From the NCBI GenBank assembly GCA_964247135.1, contig CAXTTL010000093.1:1-17233 (forward strand): DNA of 17,233 nucleotides, read 5' to 3'. Both the position numbers and the translations under genes were made by a program. Origin of the DNA: an uncultured Deinococcales bacterium (GTDB taxonomy: Bacteria; Deinococcota; Deinococci; Deinococcales; JAAFIG01). A model generated the notes under the pieces. The model did no database searches. It worked only from the letters and a program-made list of their open reading frames with translations, and was not told the DNA's origin. Shown in pieces: positions 1 through 17,001 of the stretch (position 1 is the stretch's first letter; every line of letters begins with the position of its first letter).

Positions 1-681
1 ATTACTAATCTCTCGGCTCGGTTTGAGAATGATGTGGTTGCGGTGATCGGACTCGGTGGCACGGGTTCATACCTTTTGGATTTCTTGGTCAAAACGCCAG
101 TTCGAGCGATTCGCGCCTTCGATTCGGACGCGTATCACGTTCACAATGCCTTCCGCTCGCCAGGCAGGCTCGAGGAAGCCGAATTCTGTAAAACCAAGGC
201 GGAAGTCTACCAAACCCGCTATGAAAACTTTCGTCACGGCTTGAGCATTGTGCCAGAATTCATTGACAGCTCAAGTGCTGAACATTTGAACGGTGTCACT
301 TTTGCTTTTGTCTGCGTCGATCAGGGTTCGGCTCGAAGCGAGATTTTTAAACTCCTGCTGGCACAAGGCATCCCCTTTATTGATGTGGGCATGGGTTTGG
401 ATCACAAAAACGAAGGACTGAAAGGGCAGTTGCGTGTCACCTATTTTTCGATTGAGGACGGGGCAAATATCCGTGATAAGGGCTATGCACAATTGCAGGA
501 CAGTGAAGACGACCTGTACCAAACCAACATCCAAATCAGTGAACTCAACGCCCTAAACGCCAGTCTGGCGATGATCAAATTCAAGAAGCTGCGCGGGTTT
601 TACAGCGATTCAGAACCACAGTACCACTCGATTTTTAACTTGCGCGATCAAAGCTTGATGGGGAACACCGATGAAAATTGA
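1..681 (+). CDS. ThiF/E1-like adenylyltransferase of a bacterial ubiquitin-like conjugation operon (5'-truncated by window edge; probably an E2-E1-type fusion)
   Basis: Frame is open from base 1 (ITNLSARFENDVVAVIGLGGTGS). Has the Rossmann GxGGxG motif, FDSD...HNAFRSPG (D-x-D...N-x-x-R), K-x-K, FVCVD and IDVGMG, and C-terminal Y-x-x-NIQISELNALNA...GFY. Overlaps the next gene by 11 nt. Confidence 0.85.
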   Translation: MTNLSARFENDVVAVIGLGGTGSYLLDFLVKTPVRAIRAFDSDAYHVHNAFRSPGRLEEAEFCKTKAEVYQTRYENFRHGLSIVPEFIDSSSAEHLNGVTFAFVCVDQGSARSEIFKLLLAQGIPFIDVGMGLDHKNEGLKGQLRVTYFSIEDGANIRDKGYAQLQDSEDDLYQTNIQISELNALNASLAMIKFKKLRGFYSDSEPQYHSIFNLRDQSLMGNTDEN

Positions 682-1075
682 GGTGGAGCACGTACACTTC
701 ATGCCAGCAACGTTACAGCCAGGTGTGCTGTACGTTTCAACAGAATTCCGAACAGCCGCGCATCTTTGCGCTTGCGGTTGCGGGGCGAAAATCAGAACAC
801 CACTCGGTCCAACCGAGTGGTTGCTCGAGGAAAGTAGAAATGGACCAACCTTGCGCCCCTCCATCGGAAACTGGCAGGAGGCATGTCAATCACATTACTG
901 GATCAGAAATGGTGAGATTCGCTGGTCAACTCAATGGACAAGCGAGGAGATTGCTGCCGGTCGTCAAATGGAACACGAACGTCGGGTGTTGTATTTTGAA
1001 CGCTCCCAAAATGCAAAAAAGGGTCGATTCTCGAAAATCAGCCGCTGGTTCAAAAAAGTGTTTCGATCACGATAA
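671..1075 (+). CDS. DUF6527-like Cys/His-rich protein (partner of ThiF/E1 in ubiquitin-like operons)
   Basis: P..L.PGVLYVS, AHLCACGCG, TPL...W, TLRPSIGNW...CQSHYWI.NG.I.W pattern. ATG overlaps the end of the E1 gene. Confidence 0.75.
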   Translation: MKIEVEHVHFMPATLQPGVLYVSTEFRTAAHLCACGCGAKIRTPLGPTEWLLEESRNGPTLRPSIGNWQEACQSHYWIRNGEIRWSTQWTSEEIAAGRQMEHERRVLYFERSQNAKKGRFSKISRWFKKVFRSR

Positions 1076-1139
1076 AGTGGGCGTCAGCAAGAGACTTATG
1101 GTTTTGATGGCGGGCTGGTATTTCAAGCTGTGTTGATAT

Positions 1140-1433
1140 TCAGTTTGAAATACCAACACGGTGATGTTGAATTTGTTCGATCAAGACAATCGAATTCAAA
1201 CTCCGTGAATTGGTTGAGCTTGTAGAGGTTTCCTGTCGCGTATGGACTTTCAATTCCACCTCGGCGTGAAAGGCTTGCAGACCAGATGCCCATTCAACCA
1301 AGACAGGTTTCTTGCCTGGCTCGAGTTTGAGGATTGTTCCAACGCCGAGCGAGGGTTCAAATCGGCATGTCACCGCAAAGCCTGTTTGTATTGGCTGTGC
1401 GCGGTTGAACGTGTGTTGTTTCTTGCGGCTCAT
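1140..1433 (-). CDS. Small hypothetical protein (~97 aa), possible SH3/Tudor-like beta-barrel
   Basis: ORF 1140..1505. The internal ATG at 1433 (MSRKKQ) is preferred because the upstream part overlaps the cassette promoter. Segment V.CRFEPSLGVGTILKLEPGKKPVLVEWASG resembles small beta-barrels. No clear RBS. Confidence 0.4.
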   Translation of the reverse strand: MSRKKQHTFNRAQPIQTGFAVTCRFEPSLGVGTILKLEPGKKPVLVEWASGLQAFHAEVELKVHTRQETSTSSTNSRSLNSIVLIEQIQHHRVGISN

Positions 1434-1482: not shown

Positions 1483-1512
1483 TTGACTGATGTTATGTTT
1501 ATCACGTATTGT
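1483..1512 (+). promoter_or_regulatory. sigma70-type promoter of the mutagenesis cassette
   Basis: TTGACT (1483-1488), 18-nt spacer, TATTGT (1507-1512), in an AT-rich island ~180 nt upstream of imuY. Confidence 0.6.
1493..1509. promoter_or_regulatory. RDRM-like (radiation/desiccation response motif) operator, putative DdrO site
   Basis: 17-mer TTATGTTTATCACGTAT matches the Deinococcus RDRM consensus TTAYGYNNWNNRCRTAA at all but the last base. It lies between the -35 and -10 boxes (overlapping the -10) of a DNA-damage cassette. Confidence 0.7.
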
Positions 1513-1693
1513 TAAAAGGGAATACGATCACATTAAAACCAAGGAGTCCGTTTGGATTAACAGCATCTCGAGACAAAAATCAAGAGGAACGCCGTGCTTG
1601 GCAGCCCCTAGCGTTCCTCAAGCAAACTCGAAAGCTCGAGTTTATGCCGTGTGGCTTCATCATCTTAGCGCCTGATGGGGCTGAGGTGGTGTC

Positions 1694-2914
1694 ATGCAAC
1701 CAACAACCCAATTCCAACCCAAAAATCAAGCTCGAGGTTCTTCCAACTCGAGCTTCGCGGTCGTGTGGATTGCGGATGTTCCGAGTTGGGCGGCGCACCG
1801 TACCGATCCGACTTTAGAGGGTCAAACGCTGGTCATCACGGCTGGTCGGCGGGTGGTCGGGTCGGATGCCAGCGCCCGAAGCTTCAAGGTGCGGGTGGGC
1901 GATTCGCTCGAGCGTGCCCGAGGTTTAGCTCCGAACGCGGTGTTTGTGCCGTTTGAAGCCTCGGTGGTGCAAACGGCTTGGGATGCCGCGTTGCACACCA
2001 TGAACGCCTTCACGCCTTGGCTCGAGTCGGGTCAGGTCGGCTTGGCGTTTTTGGCGGGTTTGAACCGGCTCGAGGTTGAAGCGCTGGCACTCGAGTTGCA
2101 GGCGCGGGTTGGACTTGCGCCGTCTCGGGGGTCTGCGTTGATGGCTGCCTTCAGTGCTCGAGATTCCGAGGTGCGCTTGGTGCAGCATGAGGCTGAGTTT
2201 CTTGGGGCTGCACCGACCTATTTGTTGCGGGGTGCGGGTTTGCCCGGTGAGATCATCGAACGGTTGCGGCTGTTTGGCTTGCACACCCTGGGTTCAATCG
2301 CGGCGCTCGAGGCACGCTACCTTCAAGCCCAGTTTGGTGCGTTTGCCCCGCGTTTGCTGGCGCTCTGCACGGGTTTGGACCGGCGCAGCGTTCCAGTTTT
2401 CACGCCCGCGCTCGAGGTCAGTGCCGGCTTTGAGTTTGAATTGCCCGCGATTGAACCGAACGTGCTGTATCCGGCTTTGGATTTTGTGCTCGAGCGTCTG
2501 GTGTTGAGGCTGCAAGATCGCCTCGCCTCGAGTGTGACGCTTGCCTTAAAAACCACCCTTGGTGTCTCGAGTGTGCGTCGATCATTGAAAGCCCCTTCAA
2601 ACGATCCCCGAACCTTGCGCCATGTGGCACTCGCGGCGCTCGAACGGGCGATGACTGGACTCGAGGTGCTGGCGTTGACCGTGACCGCCTCGGGTTTGAT
2701 GCGTCCAGTGCTGGTGCAAGATTCATTGTTTGCGGTGCTCGAGCGTCCCGCCGTGCGCGAGGTGGTGCGCCGCATTTACCAGGGATTTCCGGAGCGTCTG
2801 GGCAGGCTCGAGATCGTTCAACCACGATCCTTGCTGCCCGAACGTCGGTTTCGCTTTCGGGCGTTGACGGGCGAGGAAGTCGGTCAGCCCAAACGCAAGG
2901 GGCGACGCAAGTGA
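1694..2914 (+). CDS. imuY: Y-family polymerase-like protein ImuY/ImuB (N-terminal part), probably catalytically inactive
   Basis: Y-family fingers motif (SARSFKVRVGDSLERARGLAP), HhH-like LRLFGLHTLGSIAAL and beta-clamp motif QDSLF (2717-2731). The SIDE catalytic motif is replaced by ESGQVG. RBS GAGGTGG precedes the ATG. Sits upstream of dnaE2. Confidence 0.85.
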   Translation: MQPTTQFQPKNQARGSSNSSFAVVWIADVPSWAAHRTDPTLEGQTLVITAGRRVVGSDASARSFKVRVGDSLERARGLAPNAVFVPFEASVVQTAWDAALHTMNAFTPWLESGQVGLAFLAGLNRLEVEALALELQARVGLAPSRGSALMAAFSARDSEVRLVQHEAEFLGAAPTYLLRGAGLPGEIIERLRLFGLHTLGSIAALEARYLQAQFGAFAPRLLALCTGLDRRSVPVFTPALEVSAGFEFELPAIEPNVLYPALDFVLERLVLRLQDRLASSVTLALKTTLGVSSVRRSLKAPSNDPRTLRHVALAALERAMTGLEVLALTVTASGLMRPVLVQDSLFAVLERPAVREVVRRIYQGFPERLGRLEIVQPRSLLPERRFRFRALTGEEVGQPKRKGRRK

Positions 2915-3174
2915 AGGTGCTGCACATCCCAGAAAAATGCCTGGTGCTGCTCGAGCATTCAAGGCTCACGATGGTTCGGTGGCGCAACCGTCCGTGGTCG
3001 GTGATGGCGACGCTCGAGGTCTACGTCTGGCACGGCGAGTGGTGGACGACCCCCGACTTTGCTGGTGAACGCCGCGAGTACCACCTGCTCGCCACCAAAC
3101 GCGGTGAGATCGAAGTCTTTTTGCTCGAGCGTCCCGGTCAGACGGCTTGGTTTGTCTCGAGGTGGTTTGATTGA
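2911..3174 (+). CDS. Stand-alone ImuB C-terminal domain protein (ImuB-C / DUF6504-like)
   Basis: GEWW...RREYH...W.VSRWFD pattern typical of the ImuB C-terminus. GTGA overlap with imuY and TTGA overlap with dnaE2. Confidence 0.75.
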   Translation: MKVLHIPEKCLVLLEHSRLTMVRWRNRPWSVMATLEVYVWHGEWWTTPDFAGERREYHLLATKRGEIEVFLLERPGQTAWFVSRWFD

Positions 3175-6100
3175 GCGGCTTTGTCCATTTGCACTCGCGC
3201 AGTTATTTCAGTTTCAGGCGCGGGGCGAGCAGCCCCGAGGCATTGGTGGCGCGGGCGGTTGAACTGGATCAACCCGCCCTGGCGATCACCGATTGGATGA
3301 GTCTGGCTGGGGCGGTGCAGTTTCAACTCGCGGCTCGGGCGGCTGGGATTCACGCGGTCATCGGGGCAGAGGTGCTGCTCGAGCAGCATCCGGTGGTGCT
3401 GTTGTGCCAGAGCAATGCCGGTTATGCCGCGCTCTGCCGCTTGCTCTCAAAAGCGTTCAGCCATGAACACCCTCACCTCGAGTTTGTTGACCTCGAGGCA
3501 GATCATGGTGATTTGTTGATGTTGGCTGGAGGTCCGGACAGTTTTATTCGCTCTTGCCTCGAGCAGCACCAACCGCAGACCGCGCTCGAGTGGCTCGGGC
3601 GGTGCAGTGCCTTGATGGTGGATCGGGTGGTGGTTGAACTGTCCTCACACCGATTGCCTGGGGACTCGAGAATGCTCTCGAAACTCAGCAACCTGGCACG
3701 AACCGCGAGGTTGCCCGTCGCGGCGACCAACGCGGCTCGCTATGCGGTTCGGGAAGATTGGATTCTTCACGACCTGCTGACCTGCGCTCGGCTCGGCATC
3801 AGCGTGGCAGAGGCACACCCTGAGCGTCCAGACAACAGCGAAGCCTATTTGAAGACAGAAAGTGAGTTGAGATCGCTGATCCGTTCACCCCAAGCCTTTA
3901 CGACCCCGCTGAATCTGGCTCAGTCCTGTCAGATGGACTTGCTCCCCGGGGCGATCACCCCTCCAGGGGCGAACCTGCCCTTGGGCGTCCGTCCCGATGA
4001 GGCGCTCGAGGCGATGTGTCGCGCCGCCCTACCCAAACGCTACCCGAGTGCCAGGTTCACACTCGAGTACCGCCGTCGCGCCAGGGCGCAATTAACCCAC
4101 GAACTCGAGGTGATCGGGGCACTCGAGTTGAGCGAGTTTTTTTTGGTGGTCGCGGAAGTGGTGCAGGCGGCAAGGGATTTGGAGGTGCGGCTGGCAGGAC
4201 GGGGCAGCGCCGCGAACTCCATCGTCGCATACTTGTGTGGCGTGACCGGGGTTGATCCGCTCGAGCACAATCTGTTGTTTGAACGTTTTTTACACACCGG
4301 CAGGGCGGGCACGCCCGACATCGACGTTGATTTTCAATCGTCTCGCCGTCTCGAGGTGATCCACTGGCTCGAGCAGCGCTTTGCCGGACAGACCGCGATG
4401 ACCGCCAACGTCATGACCTACCGATTGCGTTCCGCCGTGCGAGATGCCGCCAAAGTGCTGGGGTTTCCGCTTGAGGTCATTAACCGAGCCAACAAGCGTT
4501 TGCCGCACGGCTCGAGTGCCAAACACGTGCGCCAACACCGTGAGGCGCTCGAGGATATTTTTGGCTCGAGTCCACTGTTTGAAAGCCTGCTCGGTTTGGT
4601 CGAACGGATGGCGGACGTGCCGAGGACGCTGGGACAGCATTCGGGCGGAATGCTCTTGACCCGAGATGCCCTGACCAACCACACGCCGATTCAAACCAGT
4701 GCCAACGGGGTCAAACAGGCGGTTTTCGCTAAAGACGATGTGGAGGCGATGGGACTGGTGAAATTTGACGTGTTGGGGTTGAGAAGCCTGGACGTGGTGC
4801 AAGGCAGTGTAGAGAAGCACCTGGCTGCCACCGGTGAACGGCTCGAGATTGATGATATCGCGCTCGACGATCCTCGGGTTTTTGCTTTGATTTGCTCGGG
4901 CGAAACACTGGCATTGTTTCAGATCGAGAGTCCTGGGCAGATGCACCTGATCGCCAAACACCAACCCAGGACATTTCACGCCCTGATCGCCCAGATCGCG
5001 CTCCTGCGTCCTGGTCCGATTGAGGGCGGGATGGTCAACACCTTCGTCAATCGCGCCTGTGGACTCGAGGCGGTACGGTTCGCCCACCCGAGTTTAGAGC
5101 CGATTCTGAGCGACACTTACGGGGTGATTCTGTACCAAGAACAGGTCTTGCAAGTCACACACCTCTTTGCGGGCATGAGCTACGGCGAATCGGACGATTA
5201 CCGCCGACTGATGAGCAAATGGCGCGACGGCGATCAAATGCTGGCGATGCGCGAACGCTTTGTCAGCAAAGCGCTCGAGACGCACCCCGACTGTTCGCTC
5301 GAGGTGGCTGAGGAGGTCTTCCGGCAGGTCAGCCACTTTGCTGGCTACGGTTTTCCCAGAAGCCACGCGGCGAGTTTTGCCAAAACGGTCTATCAAACCG
5401 CCTTTTTAAAGCTGTACCACCCGGCGGCATTTCTCGCCTCGGTGATGGAATACCACCCTGGGATGTACCCCAGGCAGAGTTTTGTGCTCGAGGCGCAGCG
5501 CTGCGGGGTGACGGTGCTCCAGCCAATCCTCGAGCGTTCCAGCCTGGGATTCACACTCGAGCGTCACGATCAACAATTGGCGATTCGGCTGCCGCTCGAG
5601 GGCATCAAAGGGATCGGTGTGGAGCAGGCTCGAGCCATCGTGCTCGAGCGCAGCGCCAGACCATTTTCGAGCTTGGAAGACTTGTATCGCCGGGTTCGCG
5701 TGCCAAAAGCCGTGCTGGCCAGCCTCGCCCAAGCGGGAGCGCTCGAGGGCTTTGGGTTAAGGCGGGAGGCGCTCTGGTCGCTCGGGGTGCTCGAGACACA
5801 ATTTGGACCTCCGGGCGGTGAAACGCCGTTGCTGCCCACGCCCGCCGCGACGGACTTGCCCGACCTCGAGTTGCTGACCAGTTTAGAGCTTGGAAACTGG
5901 GACGCGCGAACTTACAGTGCCTCGCTCGAGCATCCGATCTCGAGGGTAAGACCACGACTCGAGCTGGGTGGGGTCACGACAATCCGCGAGGCGAATCGAG
6001 CCAACGTGACCATCGCGGGTTTGGTGATCGCCAGACAACGACCACCGGCGGCGAAAGGTTTGGTGTTCTTGTATCTTGAGGATGAGACTGGGCGAATGCA

Positions 6101-6275
6101 GTGCGTGGCAAGCCCCCAGGTCTGGGAGCAACTTCAATCTGCGCTACGCGCCCCTGCCATTATCTTGGCGGGACAAATTCAACGGCGCGGGCAGTGGCGC
6201 GGCTTGATGATTCGGGACGCTCGAGCGCTCGAGGTCGGCTTGAAAGGGGGACGCTCGGGCTTGCCTCGAGCCTAA
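3171..6275 (+). CDS. dnaE2: Error-prone DNA polymerase III alpha subunit DnaE2 (ImuC)
   Basis: PHP HLHSRSYFSF and ALAITD; GRGSAANS; catalytic PDIDVDF; QHSGG; KFDVLGL; FQIESPGQ; YGFPRSHA; OB-fold RQRPPAAKGLVFLYLEDETG. 1034 aa, in imu context. Confidence 0.95.
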   Translation: MSGFVHLHSRSYFSFRRGASSPEALVARAVELDQPALAITDWMSLAGAVQFQLAARAAGIHAVIGAEVLLEQHPVVLLCQSNAGYAALCRLLSKAFSHEHPHLEFVDLEADHGDLLMLAGGPDSFIRSCLEQHQPQTALEWLGRCSALMVDRVVVELSSHRLPGDSRMLSKLSNLARTARLPVAATNAARYAVREDWILHDLLTCARLGISVAEAHPERPDNSEAYLKTESELRSLIRSPQAFTTPLNLAQSCQMDLLPGAITPPGANLPLGVRPDEALEAMCRAALPKRYPSARFTLEYRRRARAQLTHELEVIGALELSEFFLVVAEVVQAARDLEVRLAGRGSAANSIVAYLCGVTGVDPLEHNLLFERFLHTGRAGTPDIDVDFQSSRRLEVIHWLEQRFAGQTAMTANVMTYRLRSAVRDAAKVLGFPLEVINRANKRLPHGSSAKHVRQHREALEDIFGSSPLFESLLGLVERMADVPRTLGQHSGGMLLTRDALTNHTPIQTSANGVKQAVFAKDDVEAMGLVKFDVLGLRSLDVVQGSVEKHLAATGERLEIDDIALDDPRVFALICSGETLALFQIESPGQMHLIAKHQPRTFHALIAQIALLRPGPIEGGMVNTFVNRACGLEAVRFAHPSLEPILSDTYGVILYQEQVLQVTHLFAGMSYGESDDYRRLMSKWRDGDQMLAMRERFVSKALETHPDCSLEVAEEVFRQVSHFAGYGFPRSHAASFAKTVYQTAFLKLYHPAAFLASVMEYHPGMYPRQSFVLEAQRCGVTVLQPILERSSLGFTLERHDQQLAIRLPLEGIKGIGVEQARAIVLERSARPFSSLEDLYRRVRVPKAVLASLAQAGALEGFGLRREALWSLGVLETQFGPPGGETPLLPTPAATDLPDLELLTSLELGNWDARTYSASLEHPISRVRPRLELGGVTTIREANRANVTIAGLVIARQRPPAAKGLVFLYLEDETGRMQCVASPQVWEQLQSALRAPAIILAGQIQRRGQWRGLMIRDARALEVGLKGGRSGLPRA

Positions 6276-6279
6276 ACCC

Positions 6280-6852
6280 ATGTGCGGCAGTTACGGCAAT
6301 CAGCTCGAGGTTCAGGCGTACAGGGATTTGTTTGGTCTGAAGGTTATCCCAGACCTGCCAGAACGAACGCTGTTTAGACCCACGGATGTTGCACCGATCA
6401 TCACCAATCAAACGGGACTCGAGTTGCGCCTTGCCCGTTGGGGCTTTTCGCAACCGCCGAACGCCGGCAAAAAGCTGGCTTTGTTTAATGCTCGAGATGA
6501 CAAGCTGGTTTCGTCCCCAACCTGGCGCGAGGCGTTTCGCTCGAGGCGCTGCGTTGTTCCGATGAGTGAATTTCATGAGTTTTCAGGAGTCAAAGGGGCA
6601 AAAGTGCGTCATGCCTTCCAACCCAGTCACGCCCGAGCCTTCATGGTGGCGGGACTCTGGCAGGACGGGCATTTCTCGCTGATCACGACGCACGCCAACA
6701 GCACCGTCTCGAGCTATCACGACCGAATGCCAGTGATCCTCAAACCTCGAGACGTGGAAGTGTGGCTCGAGCCTGGTGTGGCTGTGGGGGAATTGTTGTG
6801 GTTGTGCAAACCGTTTTTGGCAAATCGAATCAGTGTTAGTTCGATGTTTTAA
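6280..6852 (+). CDS. SOS response-associated peptidase (SRAP/YedK/HMCES family abasic-site protein)
   Basis: N-terminal MCG (Cys2), RWG, FNAR, FRSRRCVVP..EFHEF, AGLW, ITT.AN, HDRMPVIL. Starts 4 nt after the dnaE2 stop. Confidence 0.9.
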   Translation: MCGSYGNQLEVQAYRDLFGLKVIPDLPERTLFRPTDVAPIITNQTGLELRLARWGFSQPPNAGKKLALFNARDDKLVSSPTWREAFRSRRCVVPMSEFHEFSGVKGAKVRHAFQPSHARAFMVAGLWQDGHFSLITTHANSTVSSYHDRMPVILKPRDVEVWLEPGVAVGELLWLCKPFLANRISVSSMF

Positions 6853-6954: not shown

Positions 6955-8514
6955 TTAACTACGTACTGGACGTATAACAGCAGGGAGCATGTCAGGTTCG
7001 CCGTCCCAATTGACCAGGATTGGTGGAAGCCAGTGGAGCACTGCCTCACGCACTTGGGTATCTCGAGGTCCACGGTAGAAATGATGGTAATGTGCTCGCC
7101 TCACGTGGGGGATGACCGTGTGACCACTTGAGGCTTTAAGCCCATTAGCACCTGGGTCATCAAGGTTTTCTTTGGCTTTTCGCAGGGCTGCACCGAAACG
7201 GAATCCTGTGTACCAGGTTGTCGGTTCTGCGGGTGGTTTATCATGGCGAATTGGGGACTTTGGTGTTGGTGTTTTACGGGTTAAGTCTGGTTTTTCGGTT
7301 CGCAAATACAACAACACCGAGACAAATTGCGCCAAATCCTCTAGCTCTTCGTCGGCAATTTTTTGCAAAAAATCGGGTTCAAACTCGTCGCCAAAGCGCT
7401 GTTCGTGTTCGACCAACGTCTCAAAAATGGTTTGTCCCAGCGGAAATGTGTTCGGTTCGAGTTTTGGTCCATATTCCCAGTCATCGATGTCAAGCAACAA
7501 ACAGATGTTGCGCTCATCGGTTTCGATGTTATGGTCAAGAAAGGCAAAAAATCCATGCAGGGGATTTCGACGCTGAGTTTCTGCGTATTGGTTTGGTGTC
7601 GCAACGTAGATACACCAGGCGGGTAAAGTGTTGAGGGTATCAATTGGAAGATTGTCTGTAACTTCAGTGTTGAGCAGTGCCTCGAGCAGCGTCTCGTCAA
7701 ATTCAAAAATGTACTTTGACCAGCGCCAGGCGGCAAGTCCAGCCAGGACTTCAGCGTGCATACCGACATACATTTGGTAGCCCTCGGGCGGTTGTTTGGG
7801 ATCAACTTTGCCCCATAGGAATTCGCCGCCTGCGGCGCTTGGTACAAAACAAGATTCGTGCCACAGCGGGAGTGATTCGCCCCGCTCTGCTCTCACCTCA
7901 TCAAAGAATGTCCAGACATCCGAATACGCCGCACTCCATTGACGAAAGTGCGCCAAAGCGCGTGGGGTGTTGTTTAGAAATGCTTTTGGCACTGCTCGTT
8001 TGATGCGCAACACTCGACGCGGGATCGTTTCTGCTGTTGGTGCAGTGCGCAACGAACCGCGTTTGGCTGCGACTTGCAAGTGAATCAAAACCATCGGCAC
8101 TTTAAGGGTCCAGAGAAAAAGAGGATGATCATGCTGAATGTCACGTCCGTACAACAGTTTGCGCGGTTCATCTCGACATATCAGTATCGTGATTCTGAGG
8201 CTTTGAGTCTCGTGACGAACCTCAATTTCGCAGCTTGCCCAATCTCTGTCTTTGTCTGGTGATTCAAAGGTTTGATTTAGTTCCATTGCTCTCAATTGTG
8301 ACTCGAGTTCAGGACTGGACGCCGCAAGCGGTTCGCAACGTATCAGACCATAATGGCGTTCGCTGTCATCTTCAATTTGAATGGCTCGAGGCTTGGACAA
8401 GAAATCAAACGCCAGTTCGCCCTTTGGAATTTCATCATCGATTTGCATGAAGGTAAATCGGTCCATCACAAATATCGCGTCTTGGAAAAATTGCGAGTCG
8501 ATATTGTCTGGCAT
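6955..8514 (-). CDS. AcrVA2/FinQ-family protein with N-terminal extension (copy 1, ~519 aa)
   Basis: C-terminal ~340 aa has AAWRWSKYIFEFDE, LPAWCIYV, HGFFAFLD, LLYL...PD, GFRFGAALR, PHVRRAHYHHFYRG (7081-7110) and HWLPPILVN, in the order I recall for Moraxella AcrVA2. ATG 8514 is preceded by AGGGGG. The ORF extends to a TTG at 8748. Confidence 0.75.
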   Translation of the reverse strand: MPDNIDSQFFQDAIFVMDRFTFMQIDDEIPKGELAFDFLSKPRAIQIEDDSERHYGLIRCEPLAASSPELESQLRAMELNQTFESPDKDRDWASCEIEVRHETQSLRITILICRDEPRKLLYGRDIQHDHPLFLWTLKVPMVLIHLQVAAKRGSLRTAPTAETIPRRVLRIKRAVPKAFLNNTPRALAHFRQWSAAYSDVWTFFDEVRAERGESLPLWHESCFVPSAAGGEFLWGKVDPKQPPEGYQMYVGMHAEVLAGLAAWRWSKYIFEFDETLLEALLNTEVTDNLPIDTLNTLPAWCIYVATPNQYAETQRRNPLHGFFAFLDHNIETDERNICLLLDIDDWEYGPKLEPNTFPLGQTIFETLVEHEQRFGDEFEPDFLQKIADEELEDLAQFVSVLLYLRTEKPDLTRKTPTPKSPIRHDKPPAEPTTWYTGFRFGAALRKAKENLDDPGANGLKASSGHTVIPHVRRAHYHHFYRGPRDTQVREAVLHWLPPILVNWDGEPDMLPAVIRPVRS

Positions 8515-8578
8515 CCTGAACCCCCTGTTTGTCTCGAAGAATACGAAAGTTGATTCGGTTGTAAGTCTGTTAGGTGTA

Positions 8579-8587
8579 AGTTTACCA
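8579..8587 (-). promoter_or_regulatory. Possible extended -10 promoter for AcrVA2-like copy 1
   Basis: TGGTAAACT (TGn + TAAACT) on the minus strand, ~65 nt upstream of ATG 8514. Confidence 0.35.
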
Positions 8588-8829
8588 TCCGACACCACGA
8601 CAAGATCGATTTTTGCGACGAAGGACGATGTTGATGCAATCCATGAGGGGAATAGTTTTGTCTGGTGTGGGACGTATGAATTCTGCGAAACGCGTGCATA
8701 AGTGGTTGAAAACGTCCTAAATGCAGAATTCGTTTCTACTGTAGCCAATTCAAGTCTGGCGCTCCCACTTTCTGGGCCAAGCTTTGAAGTCGGTGCCAGC
8801 CGTTTGGCAATGAGTTTTGAATTTCAATA

Positions 8830-8866
8830 TTGCATAGATGTTACATTTAATGTACAATCTATGCAA
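8830..8866. promoter_or_regulatory. 37-bp inverted repeat operator overlapping the abiE promoter
   Basis: TTGCATAGATGTTACATT-T-AATGTACAATCTATGCAA, arms 16/18 identical. Contains + strand TTGCAT(8830-35)-N17-TACAAT(8853-58). AbiEi antitoxins are known to autorepress through promoter inverted repeats. Confidence 0.85.
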
Positions 8867-9481
8867 ATGAAGGCTCGAGAAACCAATAACACAACCAAAA
8901 CCCGAGCCGCCGAATTGTTCCAAGTTGCCGATCGGCAGGGCGGCTATTTCAGTGCAGGTCAAGCGCTTGCCCTCGGCTATTCGCGGCGTTTGCATCATTA
9001 CCATCGGCAGCAAGGTCACTGGCTCGAGGTGAATCGCGGTCTGTTCAGACTGCGCGATTATCCCGTCACGCCAGACGAAGAATTGGTGAAATTAAGCCTC
9101 TGGAGTCGTGATCTCAAAGGTCAACCGCAAGCGGTGATTTCACATGAAACGGCTTTAAGACTTTATGACTTAAGCGATTTGATGCCTTCAAAGATTCACC
9201 TGAGCGTCCCCAAGAACTTTAGGAAAACACCACCAGAAGGGGTTGTCTTGCATAAAACTGCTGTCGAGCCAAACGATGTCGAAGCTCGATCTGGATTTCG
9301 AGTCACCTCACCGATGCGAACCTTGATTGATGTCGCCGATATGCACATCAGTCCCGAACACCTTAAAACAGCCACCCAGCAAGCCCTTGAACGTGGTTTG
9401 GTGCGGCGCAAACGACTCGAGGCTGCCATAACCAAGTTCGGTACTTCGAACCGCCTTGAGCGGGTTTTGAGGAGCTTATGA
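8867..9481 (+). CDS. abiEi: Type IV toxin-antitoxin antitoxin AbiEi (wHTH transcriptional regulator)
   Basis: ADRQGGYFSAGQALALG...W..V.RGLFRL wHTH, VISHETAL..YDLSD..P..IHLSVP, VTSP.RTLID. Start placed at ATG 8867, just after the -10. ATGA overlap with abiEii. Confidence 0.9.
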   Translation: MKARETNNTTKTRAAELFQVADRQGGYFSAGQALALGYSRRLHHYHRQQGHWLEVNRGLFRLRDYPVTPDEELVKLSLWSRDLKGQPQAVISHETALRLYDLSDLMPSKIHLSVPKNFRKTPPEGVVLHKTAVEPNDVEARSGFRVTSPMRTLIDVADMHISPEHLKTATQQALERGLVRRKRLEAAITKFGTSNRLERVLRSL

Positions 9482-10323
9482 AATACAACACGGCTGGGGC
9501 GTTTCGCCAAGCGATTGATGCCAGATTGACCCGCCAAGCCAGCGAAGAGGGCATTGATCGGGTTCGTTTACAACGACGGCTCGCGTTTGAACGTTTTTTG
9601 GCCCGACTGTTTCATCATCACACCGACCGATGGGTGCTCAAAGGCGGATATGCGCTCGAGTTGCGACTCGGAGGACGGGCGAGAGCCACCAAGGACATGG
9701 ATTTTAACGCGCCATCAGGATCGGCTGAGGAATTGCTTGAGGAGTTGCGAGACGTGAGCGAGCTTGACTTGGGCGATTTCTTTCGCTTTTCAATCCTCAA
9801 ACCACCGCGAGGTGAGTTGCTTGGTCCACCCGAAGGTGGACACCGTTTTCGGGTCGAGACACGCCTTGACAGCACCCGCGTTTATGCGACTTTTTTAATT
9901 GATGTTGGACAAGGGGACGTGTTGTACAATCCTGTCGAAAACATCCCTGCTCGAGTGAACCTCGAGTTTGCGGAACTGGCTACGCCACCATTCCCGAGTT
10001 ATCCCTTACCTGAGCATTTTGCCGAAAAATTTCATGCCTATACCAGACCGCGCAGTGAGCGAACCCGAGTCAAAGACCTGGTCGATTTAACACTGATCAT
10101 CGAAGACCTTGAGTTGAAACCCAGCCCTGCCCTGGCGATGGTGATTGAAATGGTGTTTGAACGCTACAACACTCACCCATTGCCAAAAGCAAATCAGGTT
10201 GATCCGCCTCCTGAGTCTTGGCGTGAACCATACCGTGTGACGGCGGAGGAACTGGGATTGGGCACGACTGATGTTGTAAAAGCCTTAGAGCGGGTTCAAA
10301 GCTTTTTGACTCAATGCTGGTGA
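9478..10323 (+). CDS. abiEii: Type IV TA toxin AbiEii (nucleotidyltransferase, AbiEii/AbiGii family)
   Basis: ERFLARL, WVLKGGYALELR...RATKDMDF (GG...DxD), AEKFHA, RVKDLVDL. Confidence 0.92.
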   Translation: MKYNTAGAFRQAIDARLTRQASEEGIDRVRLQRRLAFERFLARLFHHHTDRWVLKGGYALELRLGGRARATKDMDFNAPSGSAEELLEELRDVSELDLGDFFRFSILKPPRGELLGPPEGGHRFRVETRLDSTRVYATFLIDVGQGDVLYNPVENIPARVNLEFAELATPPFPSYPLPEHFAEKFHAYTRPRSERTRVKDLVDLTLIIEDLELKPSPALAMVIEMVFERYNTHPLPKANQVDPPPESWREPYRVTAEELGLGTTDVVKALERVQSFLTQCW

Positions 10324-10373
10324 TCGTTTGTGCATTAAGCTTGAACGGTCAAAGCCAGTAAAAGGAGGCTTAA

Positions 10374-12239
10374 ATGAATAAGGTCAATCTTTTTTTTGAC
10401 GCAGCACTCACCAAACACGCCCCAGACGTGCCATTCGAGATGTTGCAAGAGGAGACATTGGTGCTCATTGCCGATGAGACGCTAATTCCTTTGGCTGAGA
10501 AAAAAGCGACCACCACGCGGTTTCCTGAACTCCCAACGGTCTTTTTTGATTATGACTTTGTTTGGATTGAGTTCCGTAAATCGTTTGCTGAACACGAACG
10601 TCAACGCCTTTTGCCTGGAATGTCTGGTGGCACTGGCGTCATGGGACAATATTATGACCTCGAGAACCTTGCCCTGCGAGAGACTTTAGAGCAATCCTGG
10701 CGACAACGTTACAGAATACCGGGTATTCCAAATCAAGCGACTGATGCGTTGGTTTTCAAAGTCTTTGGTGAAAAAAGACTTCAAGACAAAACCTTTGATC
10801 CGGCTGGAGCAGAATTCGGCGTTGGGCTTTTGCTTTTTGACGCGGAAGGTGAACCCTTCGGTGATGGATATTTCGGTGTGATTCCACCGCCTGAAAGTGA
10901 AATTGACCGTCAAAGTTTTTTGCGATCACGCCCAATGATGGGTGATTTTGTGATTCAAAGGGTGCAGTATTTTATCGCCATGCTTGAGCTTTTGGATAAC
11001 AACCACCTGAGCTTTGAAGAGGTTCTCGAATCCTCTCGAGGAACACCTTATTTTCACTTGTTGCCGACAGAATCTCAAAAGAAGTACGTTGAATACAGCG
11101 AGAAGATTGCAGGTCTATCGAAAACCAAAGTTGAACTTGGTCACGAAACCAACCTGCTGCCAGGTGAGATTCCTCGAGCACTTGGACACTTTCGCCGTGC
11201 GAGCACACTGTTCTCAACCATTTGGAGCAAAGCCCAAACTCTACGGAACGAATACAGCGCTAAATTTCCAGAGTTGGCTCGGGTTGTGTTTTTGCCAGCC
11301 GACTCTGGAATCAATTTGTTGCAACAATTGCGCTCAGTACCCAAATACGGCGATACCTTGCGCCTACCAACTCAGGATGAGAGACTAACGAATTCGTTGT
11401 CGCTGAGGGGCACACCTTGGCTTCGACGAGCCGACAAGGTTGATATTGAGGTTCAGGATGAGGCGGCAGCCTTGGTTGGACTGGCGGCGTGGCGATGGAC
11501 CAAAGGTATCTACCGCTTTGATGAAACCTTGGCGCTCGAGCTGCAAAAAACCGAAATTCGTGGGCAGCTACCGATCCAACTCATGGAACGTCTGCCCGAT
11601 TACTGCGTGTACATCGAAACGCCAAACATGGTTTTTGAAGAGATACCGCTGCACGGATTTTTTGCCTATCTCGATATTGACACCAGCGGTCAACGTTGGG
11701 TTGTGTTCTTGCTGGATACCAACCTGAATATGTACGGCGACATTCTCAAACCACGCTTTGTTCCACTCGGAGTCACCATCGAGGAGGGTGCATTTCTCGA
11801 GCCAGACCTTGATTTCTTGCCACTCGAGGTCAACGCGGTCGCAGAACTTTCACCATTGATTTCAATGCTGATGTACCTGACCAGCGACCAGCCCGATGTT
11901 TTAGAACTAAATCCGATTCCAGTCTCAAAGACCGCTTCAAACCTTGAGAAACCCAAAAGCGAACCTCGAGTTTGGGAGGTGGGCGTGCGTTTTGGGGCGG
12001 CGCTGCGTGGCGGGCTAGAAACACCAACGGCTGAAAATACTTCTGGATTGAGCGGCGTTCACGAACCGATCCGCCCGCACATGCGTCGGGCGCACTGGCA
12101 CGGGGTTTGGACTGGACCTCGTTCCGATCTGAGCAAACGCCAGCTTTCGCTGCGATGGTTTCCACCGATCCCAGTCAATTGGAATCCTGATGCTGAGGAT
12201 GATCAAATGCCAGCCGTGATCCATCAGGTCAACGATTGA
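10374..12239 (+). CDS. AcrVA2/FinQ-family protein with N-terminal extension (copy 2, 621 aa)
   Basis: RBS AAGGAGG. From aa ~266: PRALGHFR, AAWRWTKGIYRFDE, LPDYCVYIE, HGFFAYLD, MLMYL...PD, WEVGVRFGAALR, PHMRRAHWHGVWTG (12075-12101), RWFPPIPVN. Clearly paralogous to 6955..8514. Confidence 0.8.
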   Translation: MNKVNLFFDAALTKHAPDVPFEMLQEETLVLIADETLIPLAEKKATTTRFPELPTVFFDYDFVWIEFRKSFAEHERQRLLPGMSGGTGVMGQYYDLENLALRETLEQSWRQRYRIPGIPNQATDALVFKVFGEKRLQDKTFDPAGAEFGVGLLLFDAEGEPFGDGYFGVIPPPESEIDRQSFLRSRPMMGDFVIQRVQYFIAMLELLDNNHLSFEEVLESSRGTPYFHLLPTESQKKYVEYSEKIAGLSKTKVELGHETNLLPGEIPRALGHFRRASTLFSTIWSKAQTLRNEYSAKFPELARVVFLPADSGINLLQQLRSVPKYGDTLRLPTQDERLTNSLSLRGTPWLRRADKVDIEVQDEAAALVGLAAWRWTKGIYRFDETLALELQKTEIRGQLPIQLMERLPDYCVYIETPNMVFEEIPLHGFFAYLDIDTSGQRWVVFLLDTNLNMYGDILKPRFVPLGVTIEEGAFLEPDLDFLPLEVNAVAELSPLISMLMYLTSDQPDVLELNPIPVSKTASNLEKPKSEPRVWEVGVRFGAALRGGLETPTAENTSGLSGVHEPIRPHMRRAHWHGVWTGPRSDLSKRQLSLRWFPPIPVNWNPDAEDDQMPAVIHQVND

Positions 12240-13568: not shown

Positions 13569-13823
13569 ATGCAAGTGGTGATCGATGACTTTGAGAACCA
13601 AGTCGCTCGGCTCGAGACAGCCGAACTCGAACAACTTATCATCCCTCGAGCCTGGCTGCCCAGTGACGCCCGCCCTGGCGATCACCTCCAAATCGATGCC
13701 GACCAAGCGGGTTTGATCCAAATCACCATCGATCACCAGGCGACCCAGGCTGCGTTCGAGGCGGCTCGAGAGAGCCTCGAGTCACTCACCGCGAGCGACG
13801 ATGGAAAGGACCTACAACTGTGA
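13569..13823 (+). CDS. DUF3006 family protein
   Basis: VIDDFENQVARLE...IPRAWLPSDARPGDHL.I pattern. GTGA overlap with the MBL hydrolase, a common partner. TG-c-TAGCCT-N5-ATG suggests a leaderless start. Confidence 0.8.
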   Translation: MQVVIDDFENQVARLETAELEQLIIPRAWLPSDARPGDHLQIDADQAGLIQITIDHQATQAAFEAARESLESLTASDDGKDLQL

Positions 13824-15679
13824 AACGATTGTTGCTGACCTGTCTGCTGGTGGTGGGATTTGCCCAAGCGTTCGCCCAAAAGTTGCAAATTGATTTTTTG
13901 GATGTTGGTCAGGGGGATGCGGTGTTGATCCGAACCCCCGATGGACACGCGGCGCTGTATGACGCTGGACGGAACGCGCTCGAGGTCGCCAACCAATTGA
14001 CGCAACTCGGGGTAACGCATCTTGACCTGGTCGTGATGAGTCATGCCGATGCCGATCACATCGGCGGGATGGCGGAAGTGGTTGAGAAATTTTCTCCCCA
14101 AGCCTTTTTAAGTAACGACCTGCCGAGTGCCACCGGAACGTACACGAAAACACTCGAGAGCCTCGCACGAGTCGGTGCTCAAGGGTTGAAAGCCACAGAC
14201 CGCATCATTGGGCTGGGCGACCAGGTTCAACTACAAGTCTTGCCGCCAGAACACCGCAACACCGATCAAAACGAGAATTCGGTAGGCATTTTGCTGGAAT
14301 TCTACGATTTTCGCTTGGTGCTCGCAGGCGACAGCGAACCCGCCACACAGCGCTATTGGCTTTCCAAATTTGCCAGCAAACTCGCTCATGTGGACGTGTA
14401 CAAGTCCAGCCATCACGGTTCAAAAAGCAACGACACCCAGATCTGGCTCGAGGCGCTCAAACCCCAGGATGTGGTGATCAGCGTCGGAAAGGGCAACGCC
14501 TATGGACATCCCTCGATTGAGGCTATCGCACTTTACAACAGTGTCAGGGCTAGGGTTTGGCGCACCGATCTCGAGGGGCGGATCAGCTTCAGCGTCTCAC
14601 CTTCGGGTTTATACTCTGTCAAAAGCCGCGAAATTGAAATCAATCGCAATTTGCGTGTCAACCCGAGTTTGGACATCAGCGCCTTCGCCAAGCGAGCCAC
14701 AGTCACCACGCGCCCGCTTCACAACTCAAACCAAAGTTTGATTGCCTTTGAGCCAATGCAGGTCAACGCGCTGTTGAGCATTCAAGACGCCAACGGCAGG
14801 GTCATGACCGGTGCTTTAACGACAGGAACGTATTACTTGACCCTTAGCAATCCTGGCTTTGTTCCCATTCGAGAACAGGTCACGATTAGCGACGACACCA
14901 AGCAAGTCGTGGTGGCAGTCGATGAACTTCAAGCCAATCCAAGTGCCAGCCCAACGAGCCTTACTTGGGTGGGAAGCAACCTCGAGTATGCCGTCTTTGT
15001 GATTCAGGATCGCGTTTTTGTGCCGGACATTTCGCGTTTGAAACCTGGTGAGTACACGGTGGTCTACCAATCGAGGTTTGAACCTTACAAATTGAGCCTC
15101 GTCACGGTGCGTTTGGAGGCGGACGTCAACCTCGAGTTGACGACGCCCAAATTAGGCGGGCGCGTTGGCGTGAACCCACGGACTGCCATCGTGTCCTCAA
15201 CGGTGGTGGTCGCACTCTCGTTGGTGATCTCGCCAAGTTGGGCGCTTTTCAACTTCGATCAACCGCTCAGTCCAGAGTCCAATGGGCACAACTTCCAGGG
15301 CAGCCAAACCCCGAGTGCAACCACAACGGTCGGTGATTTGGATTGTCGTGATTTCCCATCGCAGGCGAGCGCTCAAGCGTTCTTCGATGGTTTGGGTGGG
15401 GTGGGGCACGATCCTTACGATTTGGACCGCGATCATGATGGGATTCCATGTGAACGAAACGAGGACTGGACGATCAAACCCAATGAACCCCGTCCGGGTA
15501 GAACGGCAAGCACGCCCGCGCCGTTAATCACACCATCAGTTCCCTCAACGCCGGCAACCCAACCCAGTCCACCAGCGCCGTCCACGCCGACGACCACACC
15601 GAGTTCAGGTTGGTGTTGGGTCAATGGATACACCAAGAAAAACGGGACTCAGGTGGCAGGCTACTGGAGGCGATGCTGA
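13820..15679 (+). CDS. Secreted ComEC/Rec2-like metallo-beta-lactamase-fold hydrolase with beta-rich middle region, Excalibur Ca-binding domain and Pro/Thr linker
   Basis: Signal peptide ending AQAFA|Q; FLDVGQGDA; YDAG; SHADADHIGG; NENS; GDSE; HHGS; NAYGHP. Later DLDCRDF...DPYDLDRDHDGIPCE (Excalibur), P/T/S-rich linker and CWVNGYTKKNGTQVAGYWRRC tail. No ComEC membrane domain. Confidence 0.85.
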   Translation: MKRLLLTCLLVVGFAQAFAQKLQIDFLDVGQGDAVLIRTPDGHAALYDAGRNALEVANQLTQLGVTHLDLVVMSHADADHIGGMAEVVEKFSPQAFLSNDLPSATGTYTKTLESLARVGAQGLKATDRIIGLGDQVQLQVLPPEHRNTDQNENSVGILLEFYDFRLVLAGDSEPATQRYWLSKFASKLAHVDVYKSSHHGSKSNDTQIWLEALKPQDVVISVGKGNAYGHPSIEAIALYNSVRARVWRTDLEGRISFSVSPSGLYSVKSREIEINRNLRVNPSLDISAFAKRATVTTRPLHNSNQSLIAFEPMQVNALLSIQDANGRVMTGALTTGTYYLTLSNPGFVPIREQVTISDDTKQVVVAVDELQANPSASPTSLTWVGSNLEYAVFVIQDRVFVPDISRLKPGEYTVVYQSRFEPYKLSLVTVRLEADVNLELTTPKLGGRVGVNPRTAIVSSTVVVALSLVISPSWALFNFDQPLSPESNGHNFQGSQTPSATTTVGDLDCRDFPSQASAQAFFDGLGGVGHDPYDLDRDHDGIPCERNEDWTIKPNEPRPGRTASTPAPLITPSVPSTPATQPSPPAPSTPTTTPSSGWCWVNGYTKKNGTQVAGYWRRC

Positions 15680-15763
15680 AGGTTGTTTGCAAGTGGCGGC
15701 GAAGTTTATTTCCACATTAAACCCAGCGACGAAAAATTGGGTTTTCAATCACAGGAGTTTGGC

Positions 15764-16288
15764 ATGAAATCATTTTCAATCGTTGTTTTCTGCATTGTGT
15801 TTGCCGTGAGTGGCGTGCTGGCCGCGCCGTTGCTTGGCTCGAAAAACTCTTTTTACGAGTCAACGTTTTGTAAGTTTTACCTCTGCGATTTGACCTCCAA
15901 ACAATTGATGACTTCGACGCTCGAGGAATTCCGTTACACCACCGCGAACCCGACCCCCACCGAACCCAATGCCATTCCCGAACCGGGCAAGACCGTTTGG
16001 GTGCTGCGTGAAAACGGAATCATCGTCAGCGGTGGCATGGAATTCGGCGTACAAGACAGCATGTTCGGCTATGGCGGTAACAATTTTGTGAAGCGTTTCA
16101 TTGAGTCGTTGACCGACACTCGAGTCTCAGACGAACAACTGGTTCAACTTGAAGCGCGAGCCGGGCGATCCAAGGGTGAAGTGCGAATTCAGATTGGGAA
16201 ATCCGTCAAGAAGATGTACTTATCGATGCTGATCTCGAGTGGTGAGTACGGCAATGCCAATCGTCTCTCGCTTCGCGTGTCGCTCTAA
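15764..16288 (+). CDS. Secreted hypothetical protein (174 aa)
   Basis: RBS CAGGAG before ATG 15764. Signal peptide MKSFSIVVFCIVFAVSGVLA|AP. Confidence 0.7.
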   Translation: MKSFSIVVFCIVFAVSGVLAAPLLGSKNSFYESTFCKFYLCDLTSKQLMTSTLEEFRYTTANPTPTEPNAIPEPGKTVWVLRENGIIVSGGMEFGVQDSMFGYGGNNFVKRFIESLTDTRVSDEQLVQLEARAGRSKGEVRIQIGKSVKKMYLSMLISSGEYGNANRLSLRVSL

Positions 16289-16419
16289 ACAAGGGGTTTG
16301 ATGTGCTGGTGCAGGTGGGAACCTCGACTCGGCATGGCACAACCGAAGTTGCAACAAGTTCTGATTTTTTTGCCGTACAGCTTGGAGTTTCTTGGATCTT
16401 GGAACGCTATACTCGAAAG

Positions 16420-17001
16420 ATGAAACGCTTAATGTTGGTGGTGGTTGGCCTGTTCGCCACGTCACTTGCCGTCTCAACACCTTCGCGCGGTTTGGGTTTG
16501 ACCCGCACGCAATGGGAAGCAAACCACAAGAAAACCGGATTTGGGAATCTCGGCGTGCAATACGGGGACGTTGAGGTGCTGTTCGCCAAAAATCGAGTGC
16601 AGCAAATCATGTTGCTCGCCGACACGGAACTTCCAGCCCAAGAAGCCATCTCGAGCATCAAAAGCTTTTTGCCACGCGATGCCAAAGCCACCACGCAAGT
16701 TAAAAACGAGAAGAAAAGCAATGTTGTTTTCAATTACTCGAGTGCCAGCCTGGGCAAGTTGCATTTTCAGTACAACAATTTTGCAGACTTAAAAGGGTTG
16801 ACTCGGCTGATGATCGCACTCGGGGACAAGCCAGTTTCGGCAATGCAAGCAAGTTACCCAAAAAAGCCTCCATTCTTTTTTGCAAACTGTGAGGATTTGA
16901 ATGAAAAATTCCCAGATGGTGTGGGCAACTGGCACGCTTCATACCGTCCCAAACTTGATCGGAACAACAACGGATGGGCATGCGAACCGACTCCCCGTTG
17001 A
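16420..17001 (+). CDS. Secreted Excalibur calcium-binding domain protein (193 aa)
   Basis: Signal peptide MKRLMLVVVGLFATSLA. C-terminal FANCEDL...GV...HASYRPKLDRNNNGWACE. TATACT-N6-ATG leaderless-type start. Confidence 0.8.
   Translation: MKRLMLVVVGLFATSLAVSTPSRGLGLTRTQWEANHKKTGFGNLGVQYGDVEVLFAKNRVQQIMLLADTELPAQEAISSIKSFLPRDAKATTQVKNEKKSNVVFNYSSASLGKLHFQYNNFADLKGLTRLMIALGDKPVSAMQASYPKKPPFFFANCEDLNEKFPDGVGNWHASYRPKLDRNNNGWACEPTPR

Follow-up and report, generated by a model that had tools for sequence, protein, structure and literature searches.

The closest described counterparts of the element considered here are promoters controlled by AbiEi antitoxins: as summarised in PMC7319586, AbiEi of Streptococcus agalactiae represses its own promoter via two 23-bp inverted repeats lying 3 bp apart, and Rv2827c of Mycobacterium tuberculosis, an AbiEi homologue, binds repeats that overlap its promoter and start codon. 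We analysed a 17,233-bp stretch of DNA (hereafter the window), one complete contig (CAXTTL010000093.1) of a metagenome-assembled genome from an uncultured Deinococcales bacterium (GCA_964247135.1; 84% complete, 5.09 Mb), in which an imperfect palindrome at 8830–8866 adjoins an abiEi–abiEii gene pair that is itself flanked by two AcrVA2/FinQ-like genes, copy 1 and copy 2. The palindrome is probably the auto-operator of AbiEi, laid over a near-leaderless abiE promoter, with both the binding and the transcription start being predictions.

The locus is like S. agalactiae abiE, as described in that source, in having the antitoxin gene first of two, an inverted repeat in the promoter and over the start, and an AbiEi that joins an N-terminal winged helix to a C-terminal antitoxin domain. 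It is unlike S. agalactiae abiE in that the right arm of the repeat abuts the start codon, the mRNA is predicted to be near-leaderless and the operator is a candidate. The repeats of Rv2827c, located there between −1 and −131 relative to the start codon and overlapping promoter and start, are similarly placed, but they form two pairs with 13-bp gaps and show negative cooperativity, whereas one pair was found here. Aca-repressed anti-CRISPR (acr) operons (e.g. that of Aca2; PMC6765145) share with the locus a helix-turn-helix (HTH) repressor gene, a promoter inverted repeat and an acr-like neighbour. However, Aca proteins are defined by conserved acr linkage, whereas abiE–AcrVA2 linkage was seen in no other locus examined, and the regulator here is part of a toxin-antitoxin pair.

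The palindrome and the abiE promoter

8830–8847, no strand: left palindrome arm TTGCATAGATGTTACATT, a proposed half-site for AbiEi; inverted repeat, unique in window and genome
8849–8866, no strand: right arm, proposed second half-site, ending 1 nt before the abiEi ATG at 8867
8830–8835, plus strand: −35-like TTGCAT of the putative abiE promoter, assigned from recurrence of TTGC[AG]N-N15-19-TANNNT upstream of abiEi homologues
8853–8858, plus strand: candidate −10 TACAAT for abiE; top matrix score in 8400–8900, 9.3 (about 1 such site per 4.2 kb per strand)
8865, plus strand: predicted transcription start A, preceded by C8864 and 6 nt after the hexamer, from the same matrix
8838–8843, minus strand: mirror-image −10 TAACAT, predicted start 8831; matrix score 8.2, second in 8400–8900 (about 1 per 2.6 kb per strand)
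8867–9481, plus strand: abiEi, antitoxin and putative repressor, 204 aa; Pfam AbiEi_4 PF13338 (2.5e-6, residues 16–62), PADLOC AbiEi (1.1e-64)
9478–10323, plus strand: abiEii, DUF1814 nucleotidyltransferase toxin; PF08843 (2.7e-31), PADLOC AbiEii (2.2e-79)

The palindrome comprises two 18-nt arms around 1 central base, with 16/18 positions (89%) complementary. At up to 3 mismatches the window contains the half-site twice (0.01 expected), a count reached by none of 200 shuffles, and no palindrome of 16/18 with a loop of 5 or less arose in 300 first-order Markov simulations of the window. No further copy at up to 2 mismatches was found in the 5.09-Mb genome, which consequently holds no second copy of the operator. 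The plus strand reads TTGCAT (8830–8835), N17, TACAAT (8853–8858) and the minus strand TTGCAT (8866–8861), N17, TAACAT (8843–8838). The original prediction had described this palindrome and these hexamers on both strands; the coordinates agree and, judged by the shuffles and simulations, the arrangement is beyond chance. The minus-strand hexamers are the mirror of those on the plus strand and so do not constitute an independent observation.

The gene pair has the features of an AbiE type IV toxin-antitoxin system, namely a winged-helix AbiEi, a DUF1814 AbiEii, the characteristic gene order and promoter inverted repeats; both genes lie on one strand with the antitoxin gene first, and the end of abiEi and the beginning of abiEii share 4 nt. 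The earlier gene names hold, with AbiEi and AbiEii recovered by PADLOC (1.1e-64 and 2.2e-79) and both flanking genes by the AcrVA2 structure 7ci1. A longer abiEi from GTG 8702 was rejected: homologues align only from residue 5–17 of the 204-aa form, and their frames are mostly 202–221 aa.

The promoter was evaluated against the signature of the genome itself. Taking the first ATG or GTG of each of 4282 long open reading frames (ORFs) as the start codon, TANNNT peaks exactly 12 nt before the start (8.2%, 350 ORFs, against a background of about 0.9%). Deinococcus deserti has been reported to produce 60% of its mRNAs as leaderless and to translate very short leaders efficiently as well (PMC4007540), and we interpret the sharp peak as the same leaderless-mRNA signature described for that organism. 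In the 350 putative leaderless promoters the −10 consensus is TAAACT, accompanied by a G two bases upstream, a C at −1 and an A at +1, and the class as a whole has no −35 information; among their −10 hexamers TAAACT is commonest (86), with TAAGCT and TACAAT found 10 and 9 times, respectively. A −10/start matrix built from these 350 sites was applied to the region, and its predicted starts coincide exactly with those proposed in the original prediction, 8865 (plus strand) and 8831 (minus strand). The predicted abiEi mRNA would begin AAAUG, a 2-nt leader without a Shine-Dalgarno sequence.

Homologous loci and competing readings of the palindrome

Relatives of AbiEi at 30–60% identity were found in 23 of 200 related genomes. 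An inverted repeat of at least 11 matched pairs within −60 to +12 of the start codon is present at 8 of these 23 loci, compared with 0.2 predicted from shuffles and 0/23 in internal coding controls, and all 8 repeats have the end of the right arm at 0 to +11 relative to the start codon. The motif TTGC[AG]N-N15-19-TANNNT precedes 6 of the 23 homologues (7 of 1210 control windows), with the −10 placed exactly at −12 in five of those six. The left-arm sequence TTGCAcAGATGTTACA recurs at homologous locus L012, a TTACA...TGTAA core is common to several homologues (two metagenomic ones included), and TTGCAT-N17-TAACAT-N6-ATG forms the apparent abiEi promoter of locus L021.

It is because 8 of 23 homologues have an inverted repeat at or over the start and 6 of 23 the promoter motif that an auto-operator is the best reading of the palindrome; the homologue and genome data lead to the same reading when set beside the behaviour of AbiEi and Rv2827c as outlined in PMC7319586. 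Position, uniqueness and homologue architecture accordingly support the earlier proposal that AbiEi has an operator at the promoter of abiE. As read here, the locus would be an ordinary AbiE autoregulatory operator, a promoter-operator adapted to leaderless expression to which AbiEi is predicted to bind. The twist in Deinococcota is the placement of the repeat, which spans a near-leaderless start and reaches up to or into the start codon; homologues show this placement as well, and it could aid the annotation of promoters and start codons of AbiE operons within the phylum.

Two AbiEi molecules would bind the two 18-bp inverted half-sites via their N-terminal winged-helix domains, and the bound protein would lie over TTGCAT (−35-like), TACAAT (−10) and the start point alike, excluding RNA polymerase in a negative autoregulatory loop. 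When the site is free, transcription would begin at about A8865, 2 nt before the AUG and without a Shine-Dalgarno sequence, in the leaderless mode that is common in this genome. Next in the operon comes abiEii, with its 4-nt overlap on the end of abiEi. Copy 2 may receive read-through transcription, yet it has a −10 candidate of its own.

Several observations weigh against this reading. The abiE −10 begins 14 nt before the ATG rather than the canonical 12 nt, and TANNNT at −14 reaches 1.3% genome-wide, barely over background. By the criterion used, 15 of the 23 homologue loci lack a strong inverted repeat; homologue start codons were picked from few candidates, so that the offsets could be biased, and the homologue counts overstate independence because some loci are kin (e.g. 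L015 and L017, or L022–L024). The arms are 18 bp with a gap of 1 bp, compared with 23 bp and 3 bp in S. agalactiae as given in the source cited above. Finally, a generic sigma-70 scan left the two hexamers uncalled, because TTGCAT matches TTGACA at 3/6 positions, and called TTGGCA-N16-AATATT at 8804–8831 in their place.

That upstream call provides the starting point for a very improbable alternative, in which the palindrome would act as an RNA hairpin in an extended leader, with transcription coming from a promoter further upstream (e.g. 8804–8831), and would occlude the abiEi start codon, which the right arm does abut. The call itself was rejected, as the own-genome matrix gives it no backing: AATATT does not fit TANNNT, and scores of 5 or more are absent there. 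Transcription beginning about 7 nt after AATATT, at about 8838, would include part of the left arm only, so the full hairpin could not form. A leadered mRNA would also be expected to carry a Shine-Dalgarno sequence, which is absent here, and the hairpin has no Rfam family match (whole window, E up to 1).

Binding of the palindrome by some regulator besides AbiEi is also quite unlikely, as is a role for it as a DNA-level element without regulatory function, for instance in recombination or cruciform formation. Binding by AbiEi is a prediction, the arm length and spacing are unlike those of characterised AbiEi operators, and the 15 loci without a strong repeat would fit such an alternative. However, placement over the abiEi −10 and start is common to homologues whose repeat sequences differ, as is expected for a cognate operator. 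The genome contains no second copy that could act as a recombination partner, and no integrase or transposase was found among the window ORFs scanned.

The scan of metagenomes with AbiEi yielded only 3 loci, at identities of up to 60% (that one over only 32 residues), and thus no close relatives in which to look for compensatory change in the palindrome. Other arrangements were seen among the homologues. The metagenomic loci L127 and L128 have two CTTACA...TGTAAG repeat sets upstream of the abiEi homologue, one directly after TATAAT and the other about 60 nt further upstream, with a leader containing a Shine-Dalgarno sequence, a layout that recalls the two-pair arrangement of Rv2827c. At L007, an AbiEii-like gene (522–1235, plus strand; PF08843, 8.8e-6) lies on the same strand 238 nt upstream of the abiEi homologue, which suggests tandem AbiE systems.

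Reach of the operator towards copies 1 and 2

6955–8514, minus strand: copy 1, AcrVA2/FinQ family, 519 aa, ATG at 8514; PDB 7ci1 (1e-13), phrog_6160 (2.3e-43); the database gene call is also 519 aa
8515–8829, no strand: non-coding spacer separating the palindrome from the start of copy 1; Rfam 0, no repeat elsewhere in the genome
8579–8584, minus strand: proximal candidate −10 TAAACT of copy 1, predicted start 8572; consensus hexamer with a matrix score of only 5.4 (about 1 per 0.9 kb per strand)
10336–10341, plus strand: candidate independent −10 TAAGCT of copy 2, predicted start 10348; matrix score 8.8 (about 1 per 3.4 kb per strand)
10362–10368, plus strand: Shine-Dalgarno AAGGAGG of copy 2, 5 nt before the ATG
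10374–12239, plus strand: copy 2, AcrVA2/FinQ family, 621 aa; AcrVA2 structure PDB 7ci1 (3.9e-15), phrog_6160 (1.9e-36)

The original prediction extended control to all four genes, reading the palindrome as a bidirectional promoter and AbiEi as an Aca-like regulator whose single operator represses copy 1 leftward and abiEi–abiEii–copy 2 rightward, with a burst of expression in a naive cell. We consider this unlikely. The leftward site, at 8.2, is the second best in 8400–8900 by the own-genome matrix, and its hexamers are promoter-grade because L021 uses the same pair, TTGCAT-N17-TAACAT, in its apparent abiEi promoter. They are nevertheless forced by the symmetry of the palindrome, and we regard them as a by-product of it. 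Transcription from this site would give copy 1 a leader of 317 nt to the ATG at 8514, in a genome dominated by leaderless and short-leader mRNAs, and the consensus TAAACT at 8584–8579 lies nearer, 65 nt before that ATG. Copy 1 is most likely driven from this proximal promoter of its own, and there is no second copy of the operator in the genome.

Upstream of ATG 8514 the copy 1 frame runs on for 78 codons without a stop (8515–8748, minus strand). A longer copy 1 from TTG 8748 was rejected, the extension having a GC content of 0.40 at first and 0.47 at second codon positions (GC1, GC2) against about 0.60 and 0.40 in the four genes. Since this extension is not coding-like by GC1 and GC2, 8515–8866 is taken as a 352-bp non-coding spacer, in which no small ORF was convincing.

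On the other side, 50 nt (10324–10373) separate the abiEii stop from copy 2. The 50-nt gap, the strong ribosome-binding site AAGGAGG and the lack of a called terminator, all noted originally, are correct. No terminator-like site was called in the gap, although hairpin-plus-T-run terminators are in use elsewhere in this genome, which favours shared rightward transcription. Against this, copy 2 has its own −10 candidate, scoring 8.8 against 9.3 for the abiE promoter; the start predicted from it, 10348, precedes the ATG of copy 2 by 26 nt. The chances of read-through from abiEii into copy 2 appear about even, and only with such co-transcription would the palindrome sit in a promoter that drives copy 2. 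Terminators after abiEii in the homologues are uninformative, few loci having canonical hairpin-plus-T-run sites.

Two side observations concern RNA structure. The segment 10290–10400 has a predicted fold of −32.1 kcal/mol (z = −3.0; 0/200 shuffles as good), in which, locally, both the Shine-Dalgarno sequence and the AUG of copy 2 pair with the abiEii 3′ end (10294–10307), the former with 10299–10307. Because the partner shifts to 10206–10212 in longer contexts, the fold is not relied on here and translational coupling is only hinted at. Separately, CTCGAG occurs in the stems of many long hairpins across the genome, and also downstream of abiEii at homologous loci L014 and L016; together with GCTCGA it is among the commonest hexamers 16–18 nt upstream of leaderless −10 boxes. 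These hairpins could represent either a dispersed repeat or a family of terminators.

Comparative data do not support an Aca-like switch. An AcrVA2-like gene is present in 10 of the 200 related genomes and beside abiEi in 0/10; only one of the related genomes (G148) has both an AcrVA2-like gene and abiEi, on different contigs. AbiEi and AbiEii profiles, which were built from relatives and may miss remote DUF1814 members, matched 0/79 genome-contig loci of AcrVA2-like genes (flanks of up to 6 kb) and 0/14 further loci, the window being the only match; the genome-contig scan was based on a four-sequence alignment, a first alignment having been too divergent. In Deinococcota plasmids, the neighbours of AcrVA2-like homologues are RepA, ArdC-like and helicase genes.

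Gene orientation points the same way. Upstream of the 8 strong homologue operators, the neighbouring gene is co-oriented in five cases (encoding AbiEii-like, L19, NHL-repeat, UvrC and MatE proteins) and divergent in one (an ArsR-type HTH gene), with no flank available in two, so that 5 of the 6 with an identifiable upstream gene have a co-oriented neighbour. What survives of the bidirectional promoter is a promoter-grade −10 on both strands (9.3 and 8.2), whereas a recurring divergent gene was not found (1 divergent of 6). A single Aca-like operator for all four genes is not borne out, given a leftward site that follows from symmetry, nearer or own −10 candidates for both copies and a linkage that is not conserved.

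In its broadest form, the proposal would have AbiEi act as common repressor of a mobile-element module of four genes, the symmetric operator firing both ways wherever AbiEi is missing, as in a newly entered naive cell, and the orphan N-terminal domains of the two copies directing the destruction of different target mRNAs; this, too, we judge improbable. The retention in both copies of residues needed for AcrVA2 activity speaks for four-gene control. If such control were real, it would represent a new timing of anti-defence genes, in which an antitoxin would switch FinQ/AcrVA2-family genes in the manner of an Aca protein.

The AcrVA2/FinQ-like proteins and the remainder of the window

The two copies share 36% identity across about 370 C-terminal residues. 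They are like AcrVA2 of Moraxella bovoculi and FinQ of IncI/F-like plasmids in a homologous C-terminal region of about 250 aa with five functional residues conserved, and unlike them in length (519 and 621 aa, compared with about 320–390 aa, or about 1 kb of gene, in most relatives) and in N-terminal parts without detectable relatives. The relationship between AcrVA2 and FinQ has already been published (10.1101/2022.11.29.518452), and that account lists W79, D89, H286, R288 and H291 as functionally important in AcrVA2. These residues are kept in both copies within WRW...FDE and PH[VM]RRAH, the AcrVA2 numbering being deduced from the PDB chain, which is offset by one residue. When copy 2 was used as a tblastn query, 750 plasmid records were matched, 609 of them typed as conjugative, and some of the matching genes are annotated finQ.

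Membership of the family does not imply anti-CRISPR activity of the copies; about 1,800 AcrVA2 homologues are reported in the same account (10.1101/2022.11.29.518452), most in the absence of Cas12a. A search of 5.8 billion proteins, covering near lengths only, with the N-terminal 185 aa of copy 1 and about 265 aa of copy 2 returned only the query itself, and the two N-termini are mutually dissimilar, which suggests different targets. According to published work, target recognition in FinQ/AcrVA2 proteins lies outside the conserved C-terminal region, and for that reason the two long paralogues may be more interesting objects than the operator between them. Both copies also bear the precomputed protein-database label PF26125.1; the Pfam copy used does not contain that family and gave no hit for either protein.

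The contig begins within a ThiF-like gene of the NCBIfam PRK06153 group, followed by genes for an ImuB-like Y-family polymerase (1694–2914), an error-prone DnaE2 (3171–6275) and an SRAP peptidase (6280–6852). GC content is 58–61% over 1500–6500, compared with about 47–53% in the abiE region. Downstream of copy 2, the region 13820–17001 includes a 619-aa MBL-fold protein that resembles the ComEC C-terminus, matches MBL models of defence systems in PADLOC (LmuA and Avs1a) and has an Excalibur domain, and a second Excalibur-domain protein is encoded at 16303–17001.

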